Part shown: positions 11,536 through 25,848 of the stretch, piece by piece
How the letters are laid out: every line of letters starts with the position of its first letter
Position numbering within the stretch: position 1 is the first letter of the stretch
Assembly (NCBI GenBank): GCA_019057475.1
Contig: DXJO01000009.1
Location: 1 to 27,026, forward strand
Direction: 5' to 3'
DNA from: Candidatus Thorarchaeota archaeon
GTDB lineage: Archaea; Asgardarchaeota; Thorarchaeia; Thorarchaeales; Thorarchaeaceae
DNA: 27,026 bases
Translations under genes and position numbers: made by a program
Notes under the pieces: generated by a model
What the model was told of the DNA's origin: nothing
Database searches by the model: none
The model's input: the letters and a program-made list of their open reading frames with translations, nothing else

Positions 11536-12535
11536 TATCATTGCTCTTGCGTAGTTTCTCAAGTGTACTTGCTGCTGCAGCTGGCATTATTCCTAATGAG
11601 TGCGACACATCGACTGTGCGGCAGGGCCTGCGCCGCAGAAGAGAGAGTATTTCCTCCTCAAGAGCACGGCGAGTCTTCCAGACAACCGTCTTTCCTCTGG
11701 CGTCATGGACTCCGTATATCCACAGTCTGTCCGGGCCAAGATGTTGTTCAAGTTCCTTTCCGAAATTTCTCAATGTCTTGATTGAAATGGGACGGACTGT
11801 TGGTACCGCTGCAGGACGCCACGGTGTGTACACTTGTGCCAGATCCGGGCTTATGTCGAGAATGCTGTCGATTAGAGCCCGTTTCGGAAGGCCCTTGACG
11901 TTTGTGAGTCCTCTTGGGCCACGGAGCAACATCACCTCTAGGGCGAGCATACCCTTCATCTCCCCACCAAGCTTCTTGATTGCATCTTTGATTTCATGAA
12001 GCTTGAATGCCCCCTTGGAAGGGCGATTTATCCGCTTGAAGGTGTCTTCGTCGCCTGCATCGAACTTAGCGGTAACTATGTCAAATTCCAAGACCCCTTT
12101 GCGGATGTCCTCACTAGGCAGCAGAGATGCATTTGTCAGGAGGACTATGGGCAAGTCCTGTGCTGTTCCTCTAATTCTGGATACAATTGAACCGATGTTG
12201 GGATTGAGCGTTGGTTCTCCGGTCCCCGAGAACGTCAGGACATCTACGGTCCCTCTGTCCAATCTGTTCAGTGTTTCCTCGACTTCGGAGATGATTTCGT
12301 CAGAGAGAGGTATCTCGTTCAGGATTTCCTCAGGTGAAGTCACATGCTTCTTTGTGGGACCCAGCTGGCAGTAGATGCAGTTGTAGGTGCATTTCTTCGG
12401 GGGAGTAGTGATATCCACTCCCAAGGAACGTCCGTAGCGCCATGAGGATACTGGACCGTAAGTATACGTCACCGATGTCGCCTCCAAGCCTTGCTGACCT
12501 AAGTGTGTTTTCCGTTCACTTATCGCAGTTGGCAT
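11486..12535 (-). CDS. Radical SAM protein (COG0731-like) with C-terminal winged-helix-like tail
   Basis: YGPVSSWRYGRSLGVD, CTYNCIYC, TFSGTGEPTL and LLTNASL. Confidence 0.85.
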   Translation of the reverse strand: MPTAISERKTHLGQQGLEATSVTYTYGPVSSWRYGRSLGVDITTPPKKCTYNCIYCQLGPTKKHVTSPEEILNEIPLSDEIISEVEETLNRLDRGTVDVLTFSGTGEPTLNPNIGSIVSRIRGTAQDLPIVLLTNASLLPSEDIRKGVLEFDIVTAKFDAGDEDTFKRINRPSKGAFKLHEIKDAIKKLGGEMKGMLALEVMLLRGPRGLTNVKGLPKRALIDSILDISPDLAQVYTPWRPAAVPTVRPISIKTLRNFGKELEQHLGPDRLWIYGVHDARGKTVVWKTRRALEEEILSLLRRRPCRTVDVSHSLGIMPAAAASTLEKLRKSNDITKDEVGTDVFYRAEG

Positions 12536-16710: not shown

Positions 16711-16887
16711 ATCTGCATGAGAGGAAGTGGTTGTTGGGCAGCTTAAGCATTGCGTATCTAGCTTATGAGCCTGACCTCAACGGGACTCCCAAAGAAAGCC
16801 CAATAATCTACGGTATTATGGATTGAGCAAGGCCTTATTGACCGGGAAAATAGAGGTCAGGCGATTAGTTGATGGGGTTCCTTTCAA

Positions 16888-18852
16888 TCACTTCGCTCGT
16901 CTGATTTCCTCAACGGCTTCAGGATTGACCAGCGAGGAGGTATCACCTAGATCCTCTCCTAGGTAAGCGGCACGTATCGTTCGACGCATCACCTTTGCAT
17001 TGCGAGTCTTTGGCAGGTCGCTGACAAACAGTACTGCTCGCGGAGTAAGAGGTCTACCCATGGCAGTTGTTACCATTCTCTTGAGCTCCTCTCGAAGCGA
17101 CTCAGAGGAGTCGTTCCCGGGTACAAGCACACAGAACACAACAAGCTCATTCAGCTTGACCTCATGAGGGACGCCAATGGCTGCTGCTTCTGCCACAGCC
17201 GGATGACTCACAAGGACAGATTCGGCTTCAGCGGGCCCGAAGCGCTTGCCCGCGATCTTGATTATGTCGTCGGATCGACCTAGAATGTACCAGAGACCAT
17301 CGGAATCAATAGCAGCGAAATCCCCGTGCACCCATACGTTAGGCCAACGTGACCAGTAGGTTTTCTCGTAGCGTTCGGGGTCCCTCCAGAATCCTCGTGT
17401 CATTCCAATCCAAGGGGCCTTGATGACAAGTTCCCCAACCTGGTCGCGGACAGGCGTGCCATCTTCGTCAAACACGTCGGCAGCAATTCCTGGACAGGGA
17501 GCCGAAAAGGCACATGCCTTGAGCGGCAATAGAGGGTTGCCCATCACTATGCCTCCAGAAATTTCTGTCCCACCAGAGTAATTGATAATTGGGACAGTTC
17601 CTTTTCCAACTTTCTCAAACAGCCACATCCAAGGAGCAGGATTCCACGGCTCACCTGTGGAACCGAAGAAGCGAAGTGATGACAAGTCGTGTTTCCTCAC
17701 GGGAGCTTCTCCGTAAGTCATCAACAGTCTAATCAGTGTGGGTGATACACCGAGCATAGTGATTTTGTGCTTCGCGACCTGTTCCCACACGCGACCAGGA
17801 CCAGGGTAGTTGGGCGCGCCGTCGAATATGACGAAGGTCCCACTCAAGATCAATGTGCCGAAGACTAACCAAGGACCCATCATCCATCCCATGTCAGTCA
17901 TCCAATAGATGATCTGACCCGGATGTAGGTCAGTGCCAAAAGCCATGTCTTGAGCTGCTTTGACTGGAAATCCGCAATGAGTATGAACAGCTCCCTTGGC
18001 AAGGCCTGTGGTGCCTGATGTGTAGATGATCATCAGGGGATCGTCTGCCCCCATGATTTCAGTTGGAGCACTATCCGATTGGCCTGAAGTGATATCTTCC
18101 CACCAGTAGTCCCGGTCTTCCCTCATATGGACTGAGGTTTTGGCCCGGTTCAATACAATCATGTGTTCCAGTGTAGGAATCTGCTCTGCTGCTTCATCAG
18201 CGATAGGTTTCATAGTTACTAGTTGCCCTCGACGAAAGAAGCCATCAGCAGTGAACAGCGCCTTGGCTTCTGCATCGGCCAGACGATTTACAATCGCGTT
18301 GACTCCAAAACCTGAGAACAGGGGCAAAATTATGCCGCCAATCTTGGCTATCGCCAACAAGGCGACCACAATCTCAGGGACCATCGGCATGAAGATTCCT
18401 ACTGGGTCACCAGAACCTAGACCAAGAAACCGTAGCGCATTGGCAGCCTTGTTGACTTCTCGAAACAGCTCTCCATAAGTCATTGACCGTGTTTCACCAT
18501 CTTCTCCTTCCCAGATGAACGCGTCACGCTTCTCAACTGATGTGCCCATGTACTTGTCAAGGCAATTGTGGACTACATTCATCTTCCCGCCAATGCACCA
18601 ACGCGGCCATGCCATCCCTCGGGAAAGATCCACAACCTGCTCATATGGTTCATAGAATCGGATGTCAAGATACTTCAGAACTGCATCAGTAAACCAAGCG
18701 ATATCGTTCGTAGAGCGTTTCATCAGTTCACTAAAGCTCCCTATTCGATGCAATCGCATGAACTGAGTTAGGTTCGCCTCCTGCACATATTCGGGCGTGG
18801 GTCGCCAAGCAATCTCGCCACCAAACTTGAAGCTTTCTTTCATTGAACTCAC
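16888..18852 (-). CDS. AMP-forming acetyl/acyl-CoA synthetase
   Basis: YTSGTTGLAKG P-loop, TDMGWMMG, STGEPWN, SGGTE, GRSDD and PKTRNAKVMRR. Confidence 0.92.
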   Translation of the reverse strand: MSSMKESFKFGGEIAWRPTPEYVQEANLTQFMRLHRIGSFSELMKRSTNDIAWFTDAVLKYLDIRFYEPYEQVVDLSRGMAWPRWCIGGKMNVVHNCLDKYMGTSVEKRDAFIWEGEDGETRSMTYGELFREVNKAANALRFLGLGSGDPVGIFMPMVPEIVVALLAIAKIGGIILPLFSGFGVNAIVNRLADAEAKALFTADGFFRRGQLVTMKPIADEAAEQIPTLEHMIVLNRAKTSVHMREDRDYWWEDITSGQSDSAPTEIMGADDPLMIIYTSGTTGLAKGAVHTHCGFPVKAAQDMAFGTDLHPGQIIYWMTDMGWMMGPWLVFGTLILSGTFVIFDGAPNYPGPGRVWEQVAKHKITMLGVSPTLIRLLMTYGEAPVRKHDLSSLRFFGSTGEPWNPAPWMWLFEKVGKGTVPIINYSGGTEISGGIVMGNPLLPLKACAFSAPCPGIAADVFDEDGTPVRDQVGELVIKAPWIGMTRGFWRDPERYEKTYWSRWPNVWVHGDFAAIDSDGLWYILGRSDDIIKIAGKRFGPAEAESVLVSHPAVAEAAAIGVPHEVKLNELVVFCVLVPGNDSSESLREELKRMVTTAMGRPLTPRAVLFVSDLPKTRNAKVMRRTIRAAYLGEDLGDTSSLVNPEAVEEIRRAK

Positions 18853-19048
18853 TCCACGGGTCTAGTGTGATAGTGCGGCCGCTATCGAATCGCGCTCACG
18901 CCTTATGCATCGGCCTATTATAATATGGGGATTACCTGCAATTGCACTGCCTTAGAGAGCGCAAATGTGCTGCGACAGGAATCAAGAATGCTCTCCCATG
19001 TAAGAGAGCTTCCGTGACTCGCCGACAATGGTGAACAAAGCTGGCGCA

Positions 19049-19088
19049 GAATGAGGGGGCGCTCAGCAGTGGGCAAAGAGTAAGCTCC
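19049..19088 (+). repeat. Array repeat copy 1
   Basis: GAATGAGGGGGCGCTCAGCAGTGGGCAAAGAGTAAGCTCC. Confidence 0.9.
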
Positions 19089-19147
19089 TTTTCCCAAATC
19101 CGTCAACCTCTACTTTGTTCACCATCTTGAGTGAGTGGGATAGCCTG

Positions 19148-19963
19148 TCATCCGTCCGGCGCTCTCTCTCGAGCAAGCCGCTCCCTTTTGAACACAGCCA
19201 GGAGTATGATTGCTGTTAGCCACAGGAAACCCAAGTACAGGAAACCGAACTGTTGATCACCGGATGACACGATCAATATGCTTGCTAGGTAATTGATTGA
19301 CGAATGTCCAATTATGCATACGAAAACACTCTCAGTATTGTTGTATAGCCAAGTGAAAAAGAAAGCAAGTGGCACAGCCATCAGTAGCAACCCAATGAAT
19401 GACCCCTGGGACTCCGCATACCCCGGGATGGCGAAGAGAGGCAGATGCCAGAAAGCCCAGAGCACTGCAAGAACCAGAGTTGACGTTGTTGCGTTATGCT
19501 TGGTCTGCAGCTTTGGAAGTGCGTAGCCTCTCCAGCCGGGTTCTTCTAAACCACCGCTCAAGAAGACACTATACAAGAACAGGAGGGCCAAGTCCAGCCA
19601 GTGACTGCTGTAGATGATAGGAGAAGGACCTCCCAAGAGAAGATTCAGACCAATTGCACCAATGTAAAGCGCCGCTGGCACGAAAAATGAAGCCAACAAC
19701 CATGTGGCCTTCACTTGCCACTTGATACTGCTGGCAACTAGCTCATGGACAGAAGACCGTCCCCCTTCCCTTCCTTTAATGATAAGTGCAGATAAGGCTG
19801 GTCCCAAGATTCCGAAGTATAGTAGTGGTTCAAGACCTTGCATGCTTCCAGCTACGGAAGCGACTACGGCAGCTGACAGCCAACACGCCCAAGAGATTCC
19901 ATAGGCAAGAATGAAGAACATCGCAAGCGGTTTCATTCCTTGGCTTTCTCTCACGACGGCCAT
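19148..19963 (-). CDS. CPBP/Abi (type II CAAX) intramembrane metalloprotease
   Basis: LEEPGWRGYALP, LWAFWHLP and IIGHSSIN motifs. Confidence 0.92.
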   Translation of the reverse strand: MAVVRESQGMKPLAMFFILAYGISWACWLSAAVVASVAGSMQGLEPLLYFGILGPALSALIIKGREGGRSSVHELVASSIKWQVKATWLLASFFVPAALYIGAIGLNLLLGGPSPIIYSSHWLDLALLFLYSVFLSGGLEEPGWRGYALPKLQTKHNATTSTLVLAVLWAFWHLPLFAIPGYAESQGSFIGLLLMAVPLAFFFTWLYNNTESVFVCIIGHSSINYLASILIVSSGDQQFGFLYLGFLWLTAIILLAVFKRERLARERAPDG

Positions 19964-20077
19964 CTTGGACCCTCGTTTATTGGTCCGACCTAGACAATAC
20001 TATCTCTTAAACCTTCCAACGTGATGATGCCTTCTCCAAACCTGCTGTCGCGTAGACGCCTTTCAACAAAAGACCGT

Positions 20078-20109
20078 GAAATGAAAAGGGTGCTCAGCAG
20101 TAGGCAAAG
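20078..20109 (+). repeat. Array repeat copy 2
   Basis: GAAATGAAAAGGGTGCTCAGCAGTAGGCAAAG. Confidence 0.9.
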
Positions 20110-20142
20110 ATGTTTATCAGAAACCATTCCTGCAGAATCAAT

Positions 20143-20616
20143 ATGAGCCTTCTAGAAAGATTGGGTGAATACCTCATTTGGGCAGATGCAGCAATCTGGG
20201 AGATTGTGAAGGATTTGAGTGATGAGGAGTTCGACAGATCCTTTGGCGAATATGGGGGTAGTACTAGGAAGCGGTATACTCACTTGGCAGAGGACACTTG
20301 GGAGTGGTATCATGACTGGATTGGGAAGGCCCCCGAGCAGGAGCCAGACTTCCAGAACATGACGAGGGAGCAACTCTTTGACTGTCTGTCGGATTATAGT
20401 CACAGGTTCATTGAGATGATTGAACACCGAGCAGTGGGAGAAATTGAGCTTAAGACAGCAGGAAAAGCAATCCCATTGTCATTCGATGAAATCCTCTTCC
20501 ATATTGTCAACCATGCCACATATCATCGAGGACAGATTGTGATGGGGCTACGAATGCTTGACAAAGAGGTACGCATGACAGATTATGTCCCATATAGGAT
20601 TGACACAGCAGAGTAG
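20143..20616 (+). CDS. DinB/YfiT family protein
   Basis: YLIWAD, first His in YTHL, ILFHIVNHATYHRGQI. TTTATCA box about 25-30 nt upstream of ATG 20143. Confidence 0.88.
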   Translation: MSLLERLGEYLIWADAAIWEIVKDLSDEEFDRSFGEYGGSTRKRYTHLAEDTWEWYHDWIGKAPEQEPDFQNMTREQLFDCLSDYSHRFIEMIEHRAVGEIELKTAGKAIPLSFDEILFHIVNHATYHRGQIVMGLRMLDKEVRMTDYVPYRIDTAE

Positions 20617-20637
20617 TGAAGTGTTTCTTGCCATAAG

Positions 20638-20666
20638 GAAAAGAATGCTCAGCAGTGAGCAGAAGG
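20638..20666 (+). repeat. Array repeat copy 3
   Basis: GAAAAGAATGCTCAGCAGTGAGCAGAAGG. Confidence 0.85.
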
Positions 20667-20669
20667 CAA

Positions 20670-21251
20670 TTAGAGGGTTTTCTTCTTCAGAAACTCGTTT
20701 CTAAGTAGTCCAAAGAAGATGGTACCTGAAGAAGTTCCATCAGGGTTCTTCTTGTTTTCTCTAATATGACCTTCTTTAGCAAACCCGCATCTTTCTGCAA
20801 CACCAATACTCCTGACATTAGTATCATCTGTTTCGATTCGTATTCTATGAGCATTCAGAATCTCAAAAAGTGATTTGACTACAGCTTTCACAGCCTCTGT
20901 TACGTATCCTTTTCCCTCATGTTCTACATCTGCGAAATAGCCGATTCCAAACTCAGGCATATTCCGACCTATAGGACCTATGTAGAGCTGAGCCACAAAC
21001 TGTTCGGACTCTTTGAGGAAAACCCCCATGAAGAAATGAGTACGTTTTTCCCACTCGTTTACAAGATCAGCTATCATCTTCTTAGCATCTTCTTCGGTCT
21101 TGATTTCCATTGCTGGATTTTGTTGTTCATACCTCTCTAGATGTGCATGGTTTCTCTGGCTCATATCAAAATACCAGCTCTCGTCACCTTCACGATATGA
21201 ACGGAGAATTAGTCGACTAGTTTCTATGACCGATGGGAGTGTGGTATCCAT
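20670..21251 (-). CDS. RimJ/RimL-type GNAT acetyltransferase
   Basis: IETSRLILR, IGYF...EGKGYVTEAV, NVRSIGVAERCGFAKEGHIR. Confidence 0.9.
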   Translation of the reverse strand: MDTTLPSVIETSRLILRSYREGDESWYFDMSQRNHAHLERYEQQNPAMEIKTEEDAKKMIADLVNEWEKRTHFFMGVFLKESEQFVAQLYIGPIGRNMPEFGIGYFADVEHEGKGYVTEAVKAVVKSLFEILNAHRIRIETDDTNVRSIGVAERCGFAKEGHIRENKKNPDGTSSGTIFFGLLRNEFLKKKTL

Positions 21252-21343
21252 ATCATAGACACCTTGCCTTAGTGATGCCCAAGAACATAATCATATCTCA
21301 GTTCCGGTAAAAAATAATTTGTTCTAGTTTGAGAGATAATTGC

Positions 21344-21468
21344 AAAATGAAAGGGTGCTCAGCAGTAGGCAAAGGGTAAGCTCCCGATAGCGTCGGGGCA
21401 ACCTGACGATTGCACCGCTACCCCGTCTTAGCCTGCACCTCAATCTGTCCGAGGATAGGATATGCAAT
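21344..21468 (+). repeat. Array repeat copy 4 (long, structured form)
   Basis: 21349-21440 is nearly identical to 24791-24883, with weaker similarity for about 28 nt further. Confidence 0.95.
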
Positions 21469-21511
21469 GGTGCGCAGCCTTGTGGGCATTGTGTCTGAGG
21501 ATGTGACCATA

Positions 21512-21913
21512 CTAGTACGACTCGATAATCAGACCCGAGATTTGCTGAAAGTGCTTCGTGTTGCGTGTAAGTAGTCTTCGGATCCCATATGCAAGAGTGG
21601 TTCCAGCAATCATAACGTCACGAGCCCCAACTGGTTTCCCTTTGTTCATCACATCTGCTAGAAGCCTTGCTGACTCCATTGCTGCTTCTCTCTCAAAGGG
21701 AAGAACTTCCATTCGTGTCAGAACCTGCTCAAGCTCTTCAGCTCGTTTCTTCATCTTCGATTTCGAGGTGTTCTTTGAAATCCGATACAACCCTGTGTAT
21801 AGCTCGAAGACATTGACCTCTGATGTGTAAAGCGCCTGCTCCTCTGAGCTGGTTAGCCATGAAATTGCCGCGTCGTCCTTTCTGAGAAGGTCCACCAAGT
21901 ACGTCGTGTCCAA
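21512..21913 (-). CDS. vapC: PIN-domain toxin VapC
   Basis: (L)DTTYLVDLLR, NVFELYTG, RDVMIAGT, LLTRNTKHF. The true start may be slightly upstream, overlapping the antitoxin stop. Confidence 0.92.
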   Translation of the reverse strand: MDTTYLVDLLRKDDAAISWLTSSEEQALYTSEVNVFELYTGLYRISKNTSKSKMKKRAEELEQVLTRMEVLPFEREAAMESARLLADVMNKGKPVGARDVMIAGTTLAYGIRRLLTRNTKHFQQISGLIIESY

Positions 21914-21918
21914 GAGTA

Positions 21919-22167
21919 TCAGCTGAGGTCAACTCCTTCCGGACGAAGGGTTTCTCGTATCCCGTCAAATGTGTCCTCCAGCCGTGCAATCTCCTCACAG
22001 GTCAGGTCACTCCAACCTTCCGACGACTCAGCCCATAGACGTAGTGAGGCTGATGTCTTTGTTCTACAGAGTCGGGCGATGGCGTCCCCAAAGCTCTCTC
22101 CGGGAAGGCGCATCTTCTTGAGAAGATTGTAGACTTCCTCTGTGATTGAGATTGTCTTCGAACCCAT
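21919..22167 (-). CDS. vapB: Archaeal VapB-type (RHH) antitoxin
   Basis: KTISITEEVYNLLKKMRLPGESFGDAIARL, directly upstream of vapC. Confidence 0.88.
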   Translation of the reverse strand: MGSKTISITEEVYNLLKKMRLPGESFGDAIARLCRTKTSASLRLWAESSEGWSDLTCEEIARLEDTFDGIRETLRPEGVDLS

Positions 22168-22178
22168 TCTAGCTCACA

Positions 22179-22212
22179 ATCTACATATACATATGTAGAT
22201 ATATAAAGATGT
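22179..22212 (-). promoter_or_regulatory. vapBC operator palindrome plus TATA box
   Basis: Perfect ATCTACATAT-AC-ATATGTAGAT inverted repeat abutting CTTTATAT on the - strand. Confidence 0.75.
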
Positions 22213-22403
22213 GCACGGAATCAAGAGCTAGAGGCTATCCTAATCCCAATGTGAGAGAACCGATTCCAGCACAATGAAGGAACCTCAAGGACAGATACCT
22301 ACAATCCCGATTGGTTAGGCATTCCAACCATAGGTAGGTGCAGATAAGCATCAGACTTCAATACTAACAGATGTGGCTGTATGTGAAATTGAGTTGAAGA
22401 TGG

Positions 22404-22982
22404 ATGACTCGACATTACGCACTCTTCTTCGATGGAGCATGTGAACCAAGAAACCCCGGCGGTATCGCTTCATATGGTTTCCAGCTCGCGGTCAATGGAA
22501 AAGAGCTATTGAGTAACAAGGGAGTAGTCGGGGAAGGACATGGTATGACAAACAATGTTGCTGAGTATCATGCACTTATCCAAGGATTGAACTGTGTCAA
22601 ACAGCGGGCTGAGAAAGGCGATACAGTTGCGGTCATTGGTGACAGCCAGCTGGTCATAAGACAGATGACTGGGGCTTACAAAGTCAGATCGCAGAGTATC
22701 ATTCCGCTATTTGCTCGAGCTAAGAAACTGCGAAATCAGCTTCGTGGGAAAGGAGTTCGAGTGCGTTTCAAATGGGTACCAAGAGATGAGAACGCCGTGG
22801 CTGATGCGCTCTCTCACGCAGCGTTTGAAGAGTACTGCATAGAGAAGGGCTATCTGTTCAGCGCGTGTGAATGTGGTGGTACACTCATTCCTCGAAAAAA
22901 CACAAAGACCGGCCACAAGTTTTTCGGTTGTTCAAGATTCCCCGAGTGTAGGCGCACTGCACCTTTTCCTGATAAGTCCTGA
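22404..22982 (+). CDS. Ribonuclease HI fused to a topoisomerase-type C4 zinc ribbon
   Basis: FDGACEPRNPG, TNNVAEY, GDSQLV, WVPRDENAVAD, then CECGGTLIPR...FFGCSRFPEC. Confidence 0.88.
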   Translation: MTRHYALFFDGACEPRNPGGIASYGFQLAVNGKELLSNKGVVGEGHGMTNNVAEYHALIQGLNCVKQRAEKGDTVAVIGDSQLVIRQMTGAYKVRSQSIIPLFARAKKLRNQLRGKGVRVRFKWVPRDENAVADALSHAAFEEYCIEKGYLFSACECGGTLIPRKNTKTGHKFFGCSRFPECRRTAPFPDKS

Positions 22983-22995
22983 CAATCTGTGGAAG

Positions 22996-23037
22996 GAGGA
23001 GGAATGTTCAGCAGTGGGCAAAGGGAAAGCTCTCGAT
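22996..23037 (+). repeat. Array repeat copy 5
   Basis: GAGGAGGAATGTTCAGCAGTGGGCAAAGGGAAAGCTCTCGAT. Confidence 0.85.
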
Positions 23038-23124
23038 TCAGCTAACCCGTCATCTTTTACACATTCGTTTCACGAATGAATGCCGCTTGGTGTGAAATCA
23101 AGAGCTCGTAGGAATGGAGATTGT

Positions 23125-23712
23125 CTAGCTTGGCCTCTGTGAGATTATCCACACTTCAATGAGGACTCCGGCAAGTTGGGACAGTGAAACTATATGCATA
23201 TCTGGACTGTTTGCAGATGGGTCAACAAGCTGTACTGAATCCCCATCCAAATCCTGCACTAGAGCAACATGCTCCTCATCATCCCCTCCCGTCAGTTTTC
23301 GCTGATTAATACATACCACCACATCGTCATCGTAATTCAGGTGATCTATCAGGAATCCATCCAGAGTGGCAATGCTGGCCGCCCGATAACGAAAAAGATG
23401 GAGCGGTATATTATGTCGATTGAAGTATCGTTGAATTGAGAATTCCTCCGATCTTGTCTGTGTCCCCCATCCTGATTGTGGTTTGGTGCCTGTCCGAACC
23501 CAACTGAAGTGACACGTGGCGTCCTCAGGGACAATCAGTCCTAGCTCATTCCCGATCAACTCCTGTTCTGGAACTGGCATCTGGCGCCGTTCGAATACCA
23601 TCTGGAGGATTGCTGGCACACAACAAAACGGCAGTTCAAGCCTACGCTTGTACGGAGGATTGACTCTCCCTGGCGTTTCTCGATTGCTTGGCATAACCAT
23701 TACTAAATACAC
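23125..23712 (-). CDS. Papain-like (C39-like) cysteine peptidase domain protein
   Basis: CCVPAILQM (Cys-helix), EEHVALV (His) and LVDP (Asp) in the C39-like order. Start uncertain. Confidence 0.65.
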   Translation of the reverse strand: MYLVMVMPSNRETPGRVNPPYKRRLELPFCCVPAILQMVFERRQMPVPEQELIGNELGLIVPEDATCHFSWVRTGTKPQSGWGTQTRSEEFSIQRYFNRHNIPLHLFRYRAASIATLDGFLIDHLNYDDDVVVCINQRKLTGGDDEEHVALVQDLDGDSVQLVDPSANSPDMHIVSLSQLAGVLIEVWIISQRPS

Positions 23713-23781
23713 TGATTGTTCGTTTAATGCTGTCGGAGTTCATTGACAGAGTGTCAGCTGCAGAAAAGAAGTGTTGCAGAA

Positions 23782-23814
23782 GAAAAGAAGGGTGCTCAGC
23801 AGAGGGGATGGGCA
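23782..23814 (+). repeat. Array repeat copy 6 (diverged after the core)
   Basis: GAAAAGAAGGGTGCTCAGCAG-AGGGGA-TGGGCA. Confidence 0.8.
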
Positions 23815-23915
23815 GGATCCGTGGAATCTGCCCCGGCCGCTCTTATTTTGGTTTATGAGGTAGGAGCCTTCCATGTGGAATCGTGTCGAAGAGTCTGACT
23901 ATTGTACAGACTTGA

Positions 23916-24677
23916 CTACGATGTTTCGATTGGATTGCGAATCGGAATTCCCAAGTAGCCCCGGATATTGTAGAAATGTTCTCTCTCATGCTCCAGAAGA
24001 CGTCTCAAGACTTTATGGGCAGACCATAGTTCGTCTGGGTAGCTCGTGTATTCTGATCTAGTAAAGCACTTCCCGGATACCAAAGGAATCATCTCTCCAA
24101 GGGTTTCAACACAGGCGATTCTCACAACACTAAGTCTATCAATGATCGGGAGTTCCTGAATCTCCGACTCCGTCATGCCCACATTTCTCCTGTACGCGGT
24201 ATCTGCATCCGGACCCAAGCGTGAAACGTAGAACTCCTCGGCATTGCATACGTGAGATAGAATATCCAAGATGTTGCGTTTCTTGTGCGGCGGAACCATT
24301 AGCATCATTTGCGGGCGAATGTCTGCAATCAGCTCTTGCAAGTCTCTCCTGCTGTGACTCATTAGATGAATAGCTCTCTCAAGTGAAAGCTGAGTCACCT
24401 TCCTCCTATCAAACTCAAAGAAGGCGACCTCCCCACCCGACTCTCCGAGTTTGCGGATACCGGCCAATTCCTCACCAATTACAATCTTCGGCTCGGTAAT
24501 CTCAGATATATCCTCGTCATGACGCCTTAACCAATCAAGGTGGTACTGCAGCTCCTGCTCAAGTCTGTCCAAGAGAACCAATCTGCTATGGGCTCGAGCA
24601 TGTGTTCCCAAGTAATCTATGAACCTGCCATACCAGATTCCAGTGTTGCTGCGCTCAATGGCCACTGCTAGATCCAT
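23916..24677 (-). CDS. HicB-like N-terminal domain fused to a DinB-like domain
   Basis: N-terminus AVAIER...WYGRFIDYLGTHARA; C-terminus ILSHVCNAEEFY...KVLRRLLEHEREH. Confidence 0.65.
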   Translation of the reverse strand: MDLAVAIERSNTGIWYGRFIDYLGTHARAHSRLVLLDRLEQELQYHLDWLRRHDEDISEITEPKIVIGEELAGIRKLGESGGEVAFFEFDRRKVTQLSLERAIHLMSHSRRDLQELIADIRPQMMLMVPPHKKRNILDILSHVCNAEEFYVSRLGPDADTAYRRNVGMTESEIQELPIIDRLSVVRIACVETLGEMIPLVSGKCFTRSEYTSYPDELWSAHKVLRRLLEHEREHFYNIRGYLGIPIRNPIETS

Positions 24678-24786
24678 ATTATGTCACAACCACACTTTAT
24701 GTTGATTTCACTGGTCTTGTTTCTAACTCAACAGGGTGGTGATAAAGACCTCTGGATATGGCTTCTCCGCTGGTAGCAATACATTA

Positions 24787-24911
24787 GAAAGAAAGGGTGC
24801 TCAGCAGTGGGCAGAAAGGTAAACTCCCGATGGCGTCGGGGCAACCTGACGATTGCGCCGCTACCCCGTCTTAGCCTGCACCTTACCCTGTCCGAGAACA
24901 GAGTGAGCAAT
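24787..24911 (+). repeat. Array repeat copy 7 (long, structured form)
   Basis: Near-identical to copy 4. Confidence 0.95.
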
Positions 24912-24961
24912 AATAAACAGACTTCGAGGCGAAAAGTAAATGTGGAGTTGGTGCAGGATTC

Positions 24962-25345
24962 TTAGATTACCTTCGAATGTTCTTCAATCCAATCAGTGAG
25001 TTCTTCTGAGTCGATATCCCCCTGAATAACTCCTAGGAGAGTGGTTTCTGCATTCTCTACGGTAGCAGTTAGTCTGTAACCATTCAGAAGTAGAAAGACC
25101 TTTGCAGCTGTCCATGCAGTTCTCTTATTTCCATCTACAAAGGGATGTCTTGTAGCAATGCAATGAAGTAGTGTAGCAGCCTTAGACCATATCGAAGGAC
25201 TTGTTTCAGTACCAAAGATGGACATCATTGGGAGTGCTACACAGTTCTCCAGAGCTTCTTCAGAGAGAATGCCATCCTCTCCACCAAAGACCTCAATCAT
25301 TCTATTGTGAATGCCCATTATCTCATCGAATATGAGATACCTCAC
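24962..25345 (-). CDS. doc: Death-on-curing (Fic/Doc) toxin
   Basis: HPFVDGNKRTA Doc-type motif and IHNRMIEVFGG. Confidence 0.92.
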   Translation of the reverse strand: MRYLIFDEIMGIHNRMIEVFGGEDGILSEEALENCVALPMMSIFGTETSPSIWSKAATLLHCIATRHPFVDGNKRTAWTAAKVFLLLNGYRLTATVENAETTLLGVIQGDIDSEELTDWIEEHSKVI

Positions 25346-25370
25346 TTCTAAGAACTCCCAAGATTAGCAC

Positions 25371-25580
25371 TTACTGTGCTAGTTTCTCGAGGAGCTCCGA
25401 ATCTTCCTTGACAATCTCATCGAGAGCTTTTTTGAAGGCAGCATCGAAATGCTTTCCACGAGCCTTCACACCACATAGACGTAGAATCGTGTCGTCAATC
25501 CGTTCACCTGGAAGCCTCATCTTCTCTATCAGTTCATAGACCTCCTCTGAGATTGAGATTGTCTTTGTAGTCAACGACAC
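25371..25580 (-). CDS. VapB-type (RHH) antitoxin partnering Doc
   Basis: KTISISEEVYELIEKMRLPGERIDDTILRLC, homologous to 21919..22167. Ends in ELLEKLAQ. Confidence 0.85.
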   Translation of the reverse strand: MSLTTKTISISEEVYELIEKMRLPGERIDDTILRLCGVKARGKHFDAAFKKALDEIVKEDSELLEKLAQ

Positions 25581-25586
25581 CAGGCC

Positions 25587-25629
25587 TCAATGGTACATCG
25601 ATTGTGATTGATATAAAGATGTACATTGA
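25587..25629 (-). promoter_or_regulatory. TA promoter with inverted repeat bracketing the TATA box
   Basis: TCAATGGTACATC...GATGTACATTGA (one bulge). Shares ATATAAAGATGT with 22201-22212. Confidence 0.65.
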
Positions 25630-25662
25630 ATATGGATTCATCTTTAGATAATTGAAGAATGC

Positions 25663-25702
25663 GAAATGAAAAAGTGCTCAGCAGTGAGCAATGGGTAATC
25701 CC
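25663..25702 (+). repeat. Array repeat copy 8
   Basis: GAAATGAAAAAGTGCTCAGCAGTGAGCAATGGGTAATCCC. Confidence 0.85.
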
Positions 25703-25848
25703 TCAATACTCTATCACCGCCGCCTCTATTTCTCTCTACCTTCTTGTATGCGCTTTCCGTCAATATCCCTTCTAGTGAAAACAAAAAGAATTAGATATAC
25801 AGAGGCAATATGCTCAGAGCAAATGATATTGCAAACTTGGACATGGAT

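Follow-up and report, generated by a model that had tools for sequence, protein, structure and literature searches.

Archaeal pre-rRNA processing stems, chromosomal integrons, islands that accrete at tRNA genes and TnpB-driven homing are the closest described counterparts of a repeated element, and of the gene array that it punctuates, in the stretch of DNA analyzed here. This window comprises 27,026 nucleotides (nt) of a Candidatus Thorarchaeota archaeon and is an entire contig (C41; GenBank DXJO01000009.1) of a 3.34-Mb archaeal assembly (GCA_019057475.1; hereafter G000) that is 96% complete but fragmented. Our evidence throughout is comparative sequence, and on that evidence the minus-strand reading of the element is paralogous to the 3′ external transcribed spacer (trailer) of 16S rRNA.

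Like archaeal pre-rRNA processing stems, the locus has the element directly 3′ of 16S, a covarying pairing with the leader and a U-rich end; unlike them, it has many extra trailer copies scattered through a gene array, a trailer type that is independent of genus, and no clear canonical bulge-helix-bulge by inspection (no dedicated search was made). It shares with chromosomal integrons and with clusters of attC sites lacking integron integrases (CALINs) a co-oriented array, one repeat per boundary, and small promoter-bearing cassettes, rich in toxin-antitoxin, GNAT and DinB genes, whose order varies in close relatives. It differs from both in that attC R boxes and IntI are absent, what is repeated is not a hairpin site but a duplicate of a flank of host rRNA (several copies being half-sites or bare cores), and the array is anchored on a 16S gene instead of attI. 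In the tandem accretion of integrative elements at tRNA and transfer-messenger RNA (tmRNA) 3′ ends, exemplified by the tycheposon-built islands of Prochlorococcus, cargo acquired in succession is separated by direct repeats derived from the 3′ portion of a stable-RNA locus, as it is here; our modules, in contrast, come without an integrase and are single genes rather than whole elements, and their anchor is an rRNA trailer. Similarly to the homing, with co-conversion of flanks, of elements that bear nucleases (guided TnpB of the IS200/IS605 type, or free-standing homing endonucleases), TnpB adjoins its target gene, the putative guide matches uninterrupted 16S, and the host copy contains an interrupting insert of 30 nt, but TnpA was not found in this genome and TnpB cutting is a proposed driver of the array. 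The element belongs to a known kind, the pre-rRNA trailer, and the array, integron- or tRNA-island-like in outline, lacks the features by which members of those classes are recognized. We found no description of rRNA-trailer cassette arrays in Asgard archaea in the literature; integrase-less attC clusters have been reported as enriched in these archaea, rRNA not being mentioned (Ghaly et al. 2022; PMC9668308).

Relation of the element to the 16S rRNA trailer

An initial annotation of the window, made from the letters alone, had described two long copies of a structured element. BLAST aligned 21349-21453 with 24791-24896 at 91.5% identity over 106 nt, with the five A/G transitions and one indel that had been counted inside the annotated span; when an additional hairpin remnant is included, the homology spans ~21340-21467 and ~24783-24910. 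Both copies start 44-51 nt past toxin stop codons, as had been noted, namely those of VapC (21512-21514) and Doc (24962-24964). Six shorter relatives share the strand of the long copies, and each separates small gene modules. The core GCTCAGCAGTGGGCA occurs in eight copies on the plus strand, from 19061 to 25676, plus one unrelated match (9 matches observed versus 1.0 expected; 0 of 100 shuffles equalled that number), and a profile of the native trailer returned exactly the same eight copies in the window, in a single orientation, with no other match. The description of the six as remnants suits those at 20092 and 20647, which are bare cores of 30-40 nt, but not 25663-25742, which is a nearly complete short-type trailer; the remaining three, at 19061, 23006 and 23794, can be aligned to short-type trailers, though weakly. 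The copies are as follows.

21340..21467, minus strand: long copy A of the 16S 3′ trailer, aligning to 37-158 of the 160-nt native trailer; UUCG-type hairpin H1 decayed, with two mismatches
24783..24910, minus strand: long copy B of the 16S 3′ trailer, aligning to 35-153 of 160; H1 intact except for one U.G pair
25663..25742, minus strand: short-type trailer copy of the type native to genus g12, positions 18-98 of 105; score 107 versus G060 and 97 versus G033; profile E 1.2e-8
22988..23093 (core 22990-23038), minus strand: diverged medium- or short-type copy; its homologue in G010 lies upstream of the same cassette
23771..23849 (core 23780-23816), minus strand: diverged trailer copy
19046..19133 (core 19048-19093), minus strand: diverged trailer copy
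20628..20670, minus strand: core-only trailer remnant
20076..20124, minus strand: core-only trailer remnant, abutting the start codon of the DinB gene
16715..16750, minus strand: possible decayed terminal copy, CTGCCCAAC..TCATGCAGA, seen by eye only and undetected by the profile; far boundary of the array

Genome-wide BLAST with the long copies recovered four further long copies on contig C9 and one diverged copy on C42. One of the long copies on C9 begins at most 40 nt from the 3′ end of an archaeal 16S rRNA gene (C9:14000-15531, located with Rfam), and the minus reading of the element is collinear with the rRNA. When one genome per species was scanned for the exact pattern, all matches came from Candidatus Thorarchaeota metagenome-assembled genomes (MAGs), the element abutting the 16S 3′ end at three of those loci. 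Among 61 genomes of the order, the post-16S sequence follows one plan in most genera: an immediate hairpin, often a cUUCGg-capped hairpin, the motif GGURCAGGC, GGGRnnUUnCCC, CAYUGYUGAGCMCCC and a U-rich tract. Inverted partners are present in the 16S leader (GCUCARCAGUG.GCAG, GGGUAAGC, ACCCUGUC and GCCUGUAC), such that native trailer and leader are predicted to pair over four helices into a long pre-rRNA processing stem; of 11 genomes tested by cofolding, 10 gave a single extended duplex (-95 to -141 kcal/mol). More specifically, helix 1 covaries between genomes, with one position being G-C in four and A-U in six and another U-A versus G-C, and genome G051 carries a matched AGAUG/CAUCU insertion in that helix. 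Adjacency to 16S, together with leader pairing that shows compensatory changes, identifies the element as the 3′ strand of the pre-16S processing stem. The window copies themselves are paralogues distant from the 16S gene.

Complementarity to the 16S leader has been kept in these paralogues. On the minus strand, the predicted gain in free energy upon pairing with the leader (ΔΔG) was -28.9 kcal/mol for copy A (z -8.5) and -27.4 kcal/mol for copy B (z -6.8), and that of the native trailer was -26.6 kcal/mol (z -8.4), with shuffles at about -7; no such gain was obtained for the plus readings (z +0.4 and -2.3). The proposed derivation from a structured RNA is therefore borne out, the RNA being the pre-16S processing stem, but an undescribed stand-alone RNA it is not: the element is a duplicated piece of the pre-16S trailer whose chief pairing partner is the 16S leader and not itself. 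Likewise, the Rfam search that had been suggested gave no relevant family at either threshold. There was no match at the gathering score in the window, sister loci gave rRNA and a tRNA only, and under permissive thresholds the sole sub-threshold match was Xist_exon1 (18 bits versus a gathering score of 50).

Other identities were considered and set aside. We found no tRNA or tmRNA origin for the repeat; a C/D-box small RNA (AUGA...CUGA) was rejected as its box is unconserved in copy B, judged by eye; and a small peptide was rejected because the 60-aa open reading frame at 24728-24910 (minus strand) spans copy B only, copy A having no equivalent.

With regard to the fold, the stems named in the initial annotation can indeed be drawn on both strands, but standalone folds are no better than dinucleotide shuffles (z -0.7 and -0.7 for the minus readings; -1.7 for copy A and -0.45 for copy B on plus), and the native trailer copy folded alone behaved similarly (z -1.0 and 0.0). 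RNAalifold, which had also been suggested for both strands, did yield consensus structures, albeit weak and partly spurious ones (-17.2 and -14.1 kcal/mol). As isolated-element folds were of this quality, hand-specified local structures were needed, and these were tested on an alignment of 18 sequences from several genera against 500 shuffles. The three hairpins concerned are given below.

H1, minus strand: CUGUC-UUCG-GACAG
A, minus strand: GCAAYY-loop-GGUUGC
B, minus strand: CCCGA-CGCCA-UCGGG

The minus-strand hairpins H1, A and B were 89% paired, compared with 29-53% when the partners were slid, six pairs had changed on both sides, and neither the pairing nor the covariation score was matched by any of the 500 shuffles. 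In two sequences of genus g12, hairpin B reads CCAAC/GUUGG, which amounts to three compensatory pairs. Variation in hairpin A consists of U.G/C-G alternation only, which is neutral on the minus strand and gives A.C mismatches on the opposite one, and hence fits the minus strand only. In contrast, the GNRA-capped rod drawn on the plus strand had 81.5% of cells paired, equal to the shuffled mean, with a covariation of 0.056 versus 0.062 for shuffles, and the GNRA-capped stem has a broken base (CCUGAAC variant) in the native copy next to 16S. Since leader complementarity is confined to the minus strand, the hairpins there covary, and the rod gives no signal, we conclude from these comparisons that the functional strand, which the initial annotation had left undecided, is the minus strand; the CCCGA/UCGGG hairpin and U-rich tail it had pointed out on that strand are meaningful parts of the fold. 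The fold is that of a pre-rRNA spacer and not of an autonomous RNA.

Architecture of the array and apparent exchange of trailers

Co-oriented copies separate modules of one to three genes, eight copies lying in the window and five more on C9. All C9 copies share the direction of the 16S gene and all C41 copies have the opposite direction on their contig, which fits C9 running into a reversed C41; the array most likely begins at the 16S gene on C9 and continues into the window read backwards. The modules of the window are as follows.

21512..22982, minus strand: cassette K10, with VapB (21919-22167), VapC PIN toxin (21512-21913) and an antisense RNase H-zinc ribbon gene (22404-22982, plus strand)
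24962..25580, minus strand: cassette K7, with a VapB/Phd-like antitoxin (25371-25580) and a Doc/Fic toxin (24962-25345)
23125..24677, minus strand: K9 (195 aa, no family match) and K8 (253 aa, weak DinB_2 match)
20670-21251, minus strand: GNAT
20110-20616, plus strand: DinB
19148-19963, minus strand: CAAX/Rce1-like protease
16888-18852, minus strand: AMP-dependent ligase
A 320-aa unassigned protein is a further module of the window array

Among genomes of the same genus, at 89-96% identity, the cassettes are reshuffled. In G051, a single contig carries 16S, a trailer, the S9-peptidase cassette K3 (C9:25481-27741), a trailer, and the RNase H/VapBC cassette K10 (C41:23037-21513). The order in G010 is K3-X1-K7-X2-K10, K7 thus being in another context; G046 has the VapBC long copy placed before the C9 toxin-antitoxin cassette, and G038 shows still another order. 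The K10 block accordingly adjoins different neighbours in G051, G046 and G010. Three relatives' arrays stop at C41 16695-16720, which places the AMP-ligase gene inside the array in the window genome. At least two copies were present in 15 of the 61 sampled genomes, belonging to five genera, often at ~1-kb spacing beside 16S (e.g., G041). In some genera, copies also span the last ~40 nt of mature 16S, and displaced tails in other genera seem to take in part of the 16S gene itself. Extra copies of the mature 16S end (~40 nt) were seen away from the gene at G019:C9:10054-10096 and 11548-11590, G053:C15:34219-34258 and G059:C15:5847-5880.

Trailers fall into a long type (~160 nt), with hairpins A and B, and a short type (~100-105 nt). 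When 16S-adjacent trailers of other genomes were compared (loci L015, L016, L017, L018 and L043), the type was found to cross genus lines: in genus g8 it is short in G017 and long in G041, and in g12 it is short in G060 and G033 and long in G036. This mixture of types within g8 and g12 suggests that the 16S-adjacent trailer has itself been exchanged horizontally. Exchange is also indicated for the array copies. Long copies within the genus are mosaic, with all four gametes in 5 of 6 informative site pairs, so that the involvement of recombination supposed in the initial annotation is upheld. In three genomes, the copy preceding K10 belongs to three different trailer types, its distal part is common to G000 and G010 despite their different upstream cargo, and the copy at 25663-25742 is of the type native to another genus, g12. 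As a separate observation, the post-16S sequence at L031 (G008:C75) is unlike the trailer; in that genus the sequence may run on towards 23S, with the rRNA genes still linked.

The first cassette after the 16S gene on C9 contains a TnpB gene (580 aa; NF040570, 114 bits) and a 1693-aa protein without a match in Pfam, NCBIfam or PDB. An exact 17-nt match to 16S lies downstream of the TnpB gene (L001:12990-13050 region). The host 16S is interrupted by a 30-nt hairpin insert (L001:5358-5387), and by our reading the match would extend to 27 nt of 16S if that insert is left out. This match is followed by 13 nt that are antisense to the 3′ end of 16S. The genome has 16 matches to TnpB models, 7 of them above the cut-off, and the Y1 transposase TnpA (PF01797) was not found in the 96%-complete genome. 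In G051, G046 and G038 (L028-L030), a 30-nt insertion absent from G000 lies in the last 120 nt of 16S (150 versus 120 nt aligned), and the insert of G000's own 16S lies further upstream; positions of these mini-introns therefore vary between close relatives.

A displaced-tail model and its alternatives

Taken together, the sequence comparisons make it probable that these trailer paralogues are displaced rRNA tails serving as portable homology for the exchange of cassettes. Such tails would be left behind as new DNA enters at the 16S 3′ end or trailer. The trigger for entry would probably be double-strand breaks made by selfish nucleases that target the 3′ domain of 16S, the nuclease here being TnpB with a guide that matches intron-less 16S. 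Breaks in insert-free 16S alleles would be repaired from an allele carrying the nuclease cassette, with the downstream trailer copy acting as the far homology arm; repair would thus install a new trailer and cargo and move the previous trailer further downstream. Cassettes would later be gained, deleted and reshuffled as trailer copies recombine homologously or undergo gene conversion with one another. The difference between G000 and G051 looks like one such insertion step: in G000, a block consisting of trailer, K1 (TnpB) and K2 lies between 16S and the old trailer, and the old trailer still has the AUCUG variant of G051 type, which agrees with the leader of the same type. We infer that the array copies owe their hairpins to pre-rRNA and that constraint on these hairpins is relaxed; termination of cassette transcripts may still be aided by the U-rich end.

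Several points weigh against this model. The far edge of the copies (..UUUUGCA) is precise within a few nucleotides across trailer types, and the core common to divergent copies is only 15-35 nt, short for homologous recombination; a site-specific enzyme is kept as a rival for these two reasons. The model does not account for the first placement of a gene between two trailers, we infer the link from TnpB to array growth from one locus, and a linked recombinase could lie in a gap between the fragmented MAG contigs. As regards the trailer itself, the predicted duplex with the leader has bulges and internal loops and, by inspection and with no dedicated search, no clear canonical 3-4-3 bulge-helix-bulge, and the covariation in hairpin B comes from two related sequences only and may represent a single event.

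A more ambitious proposal, which we regard as possible but doubtful, is an "rRNA integron" in which the trailer copies would be the working sites of a dedicated gene-capture system on Thorarchaeota 16S, with TnpB or a recombinase installing cassettes beside the rRNA gene, and with the leader complementarity being functional, for example in processing or in silencing read-through transcripts. We judge it unlikely that a dedicated site-specific recombinase attaches at the trailer core (an integron-like arrangement, with the core analogous to attC), cassettes being excised and inserted at one fixed position next to ..UUUUGCA by an enzyme that is unrecognized or encoded elsewhere. Such an enzyme would explain more simply than homologous recombination why the far edge is precise and common to three trailer types before the same cassette, and the copies are all co-oriented, one per cassette boundary, with integron-like cargo; of the eight tyrosine recombinase genes in the genome, three sit at contig ends, and integrase-less attC clusters are reportedly enriched in Asgard archaea (Ghaly et al.; PMC9668308). 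Yet boxes of the form RYYYAAC/GTTRRRY (R''/R') are absent in and around every copy, being found on neither strand of the long copies, and no box pairs occur in 16.7-27.0 kb. The integron integrase model (TIGR02249) gave a best match of 31.5 bits against a cut-off of 265 in this 96% complete, fragmented genome, PF00589 tyrosine recombinases had no match on the array contigs C9 and C41, and the cassettes examined encode no recombinase. Moreover, the mosaics and the four-gamete result indicate crossovers spread along the element, and two copies are bare 30-40 nt cores without a partner arm.

Somewhat less likely again is that the array copies are functional 3′ untranslated region (UTR) modules, kept by selection for termination, mRNA stability or processing, possibly via pairing with the 16S leader. 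That the copies lie on the coding strand 44-51 nt after toxin stop codons and have a U-rich tract at their end speaks for such a role, as do the largely retained local hairpins and the leader complementarity, fully retained in both window copies. However, standalone folding equals that of shuffled sequence, H1 is decayed in copy A and at L051:1916, the U-tract is lost in some copies (e.g., CCTCCTCCTTCCACAG at 23006), and the proximal 85 nt are absent or unrecognizable in most; copies that follow antisense genes (DinB, RNase H) cannot be 3′ UTRs there. Very improbable, in our view, is an independent novel noncoding RNA or a plus-strand folded single-stranded DNA substrate, be it a GNRA-capped rod, a miniature inverted-repeat transposable element (MITE) or an IS200/IS605-type end. 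The GCAA-capped rod can be drawn, and the plus fold of copy A is slightly better than shuffles, but the rod lacks covariation, its stem base is broken in the native copy, and no Rfam family matches. A MITE or IS200/IS605 end was rejected given that copies occur in arrays only, apart from one orphan, with no target-site duplications in their flanks, and that PF01797 was not found in the genome. The folded single-stranded DNA substrate suggested by the initial annotation, taken as attC-like, thus falls on attC boxes, integron integrase and Y1 transposase alike.

The interest of the element lies in its context; its fold is inherited from pre-rRNA and founds no new noncoding RNA family. An essential and universal gene, 16S, anchors a fast-changing accessory array that has no detected integrase or attC and that carries an RNA-guided nuclease apparently aimed at the same gene. 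Asgard archaea are the closest prokaryotic relatives of eukaryotes. If the mechanism is true, it would add to integrons and tRNA-targeting islands another way of capturing genes, and would link selfish nucleases, rRNA mini-introns and growth of the accessory genome. In addition, the trailer core offers a practical marker for such arrays in metagenomes.

Cassette cargo and an orphan copy

The cargo profile (toxin-antitoxin, GNAT, DinB and CAAX-type protease) is typical of accessory genes. The antitoxins at 21919-22167 and 25371-25580 share a stretch of ~93 nt with 71% identity and have different toxins (PIN versus Doc), which looks like a toxin swap onto a common antitoxin. The N-terminal part of another TnpB (165 bits) occupies 1-804 of the window on the minus strand.

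Outside any array, G000 has an orphan, diverged (~85%), full-length trailer copy at C42:290703-290832 (L003:9703-9832, plus strand). It sits between an octopine-dehydrogenase-like gene and a 248-aa gene, in a locus that is 89-97% conserved in three relatives, and may represent either a relic or a gene for a small RNA; it shows partial complementarity to the 16S leader (ΔΔG -19.6 kcal/mol) and has a TATA-like box upstream.

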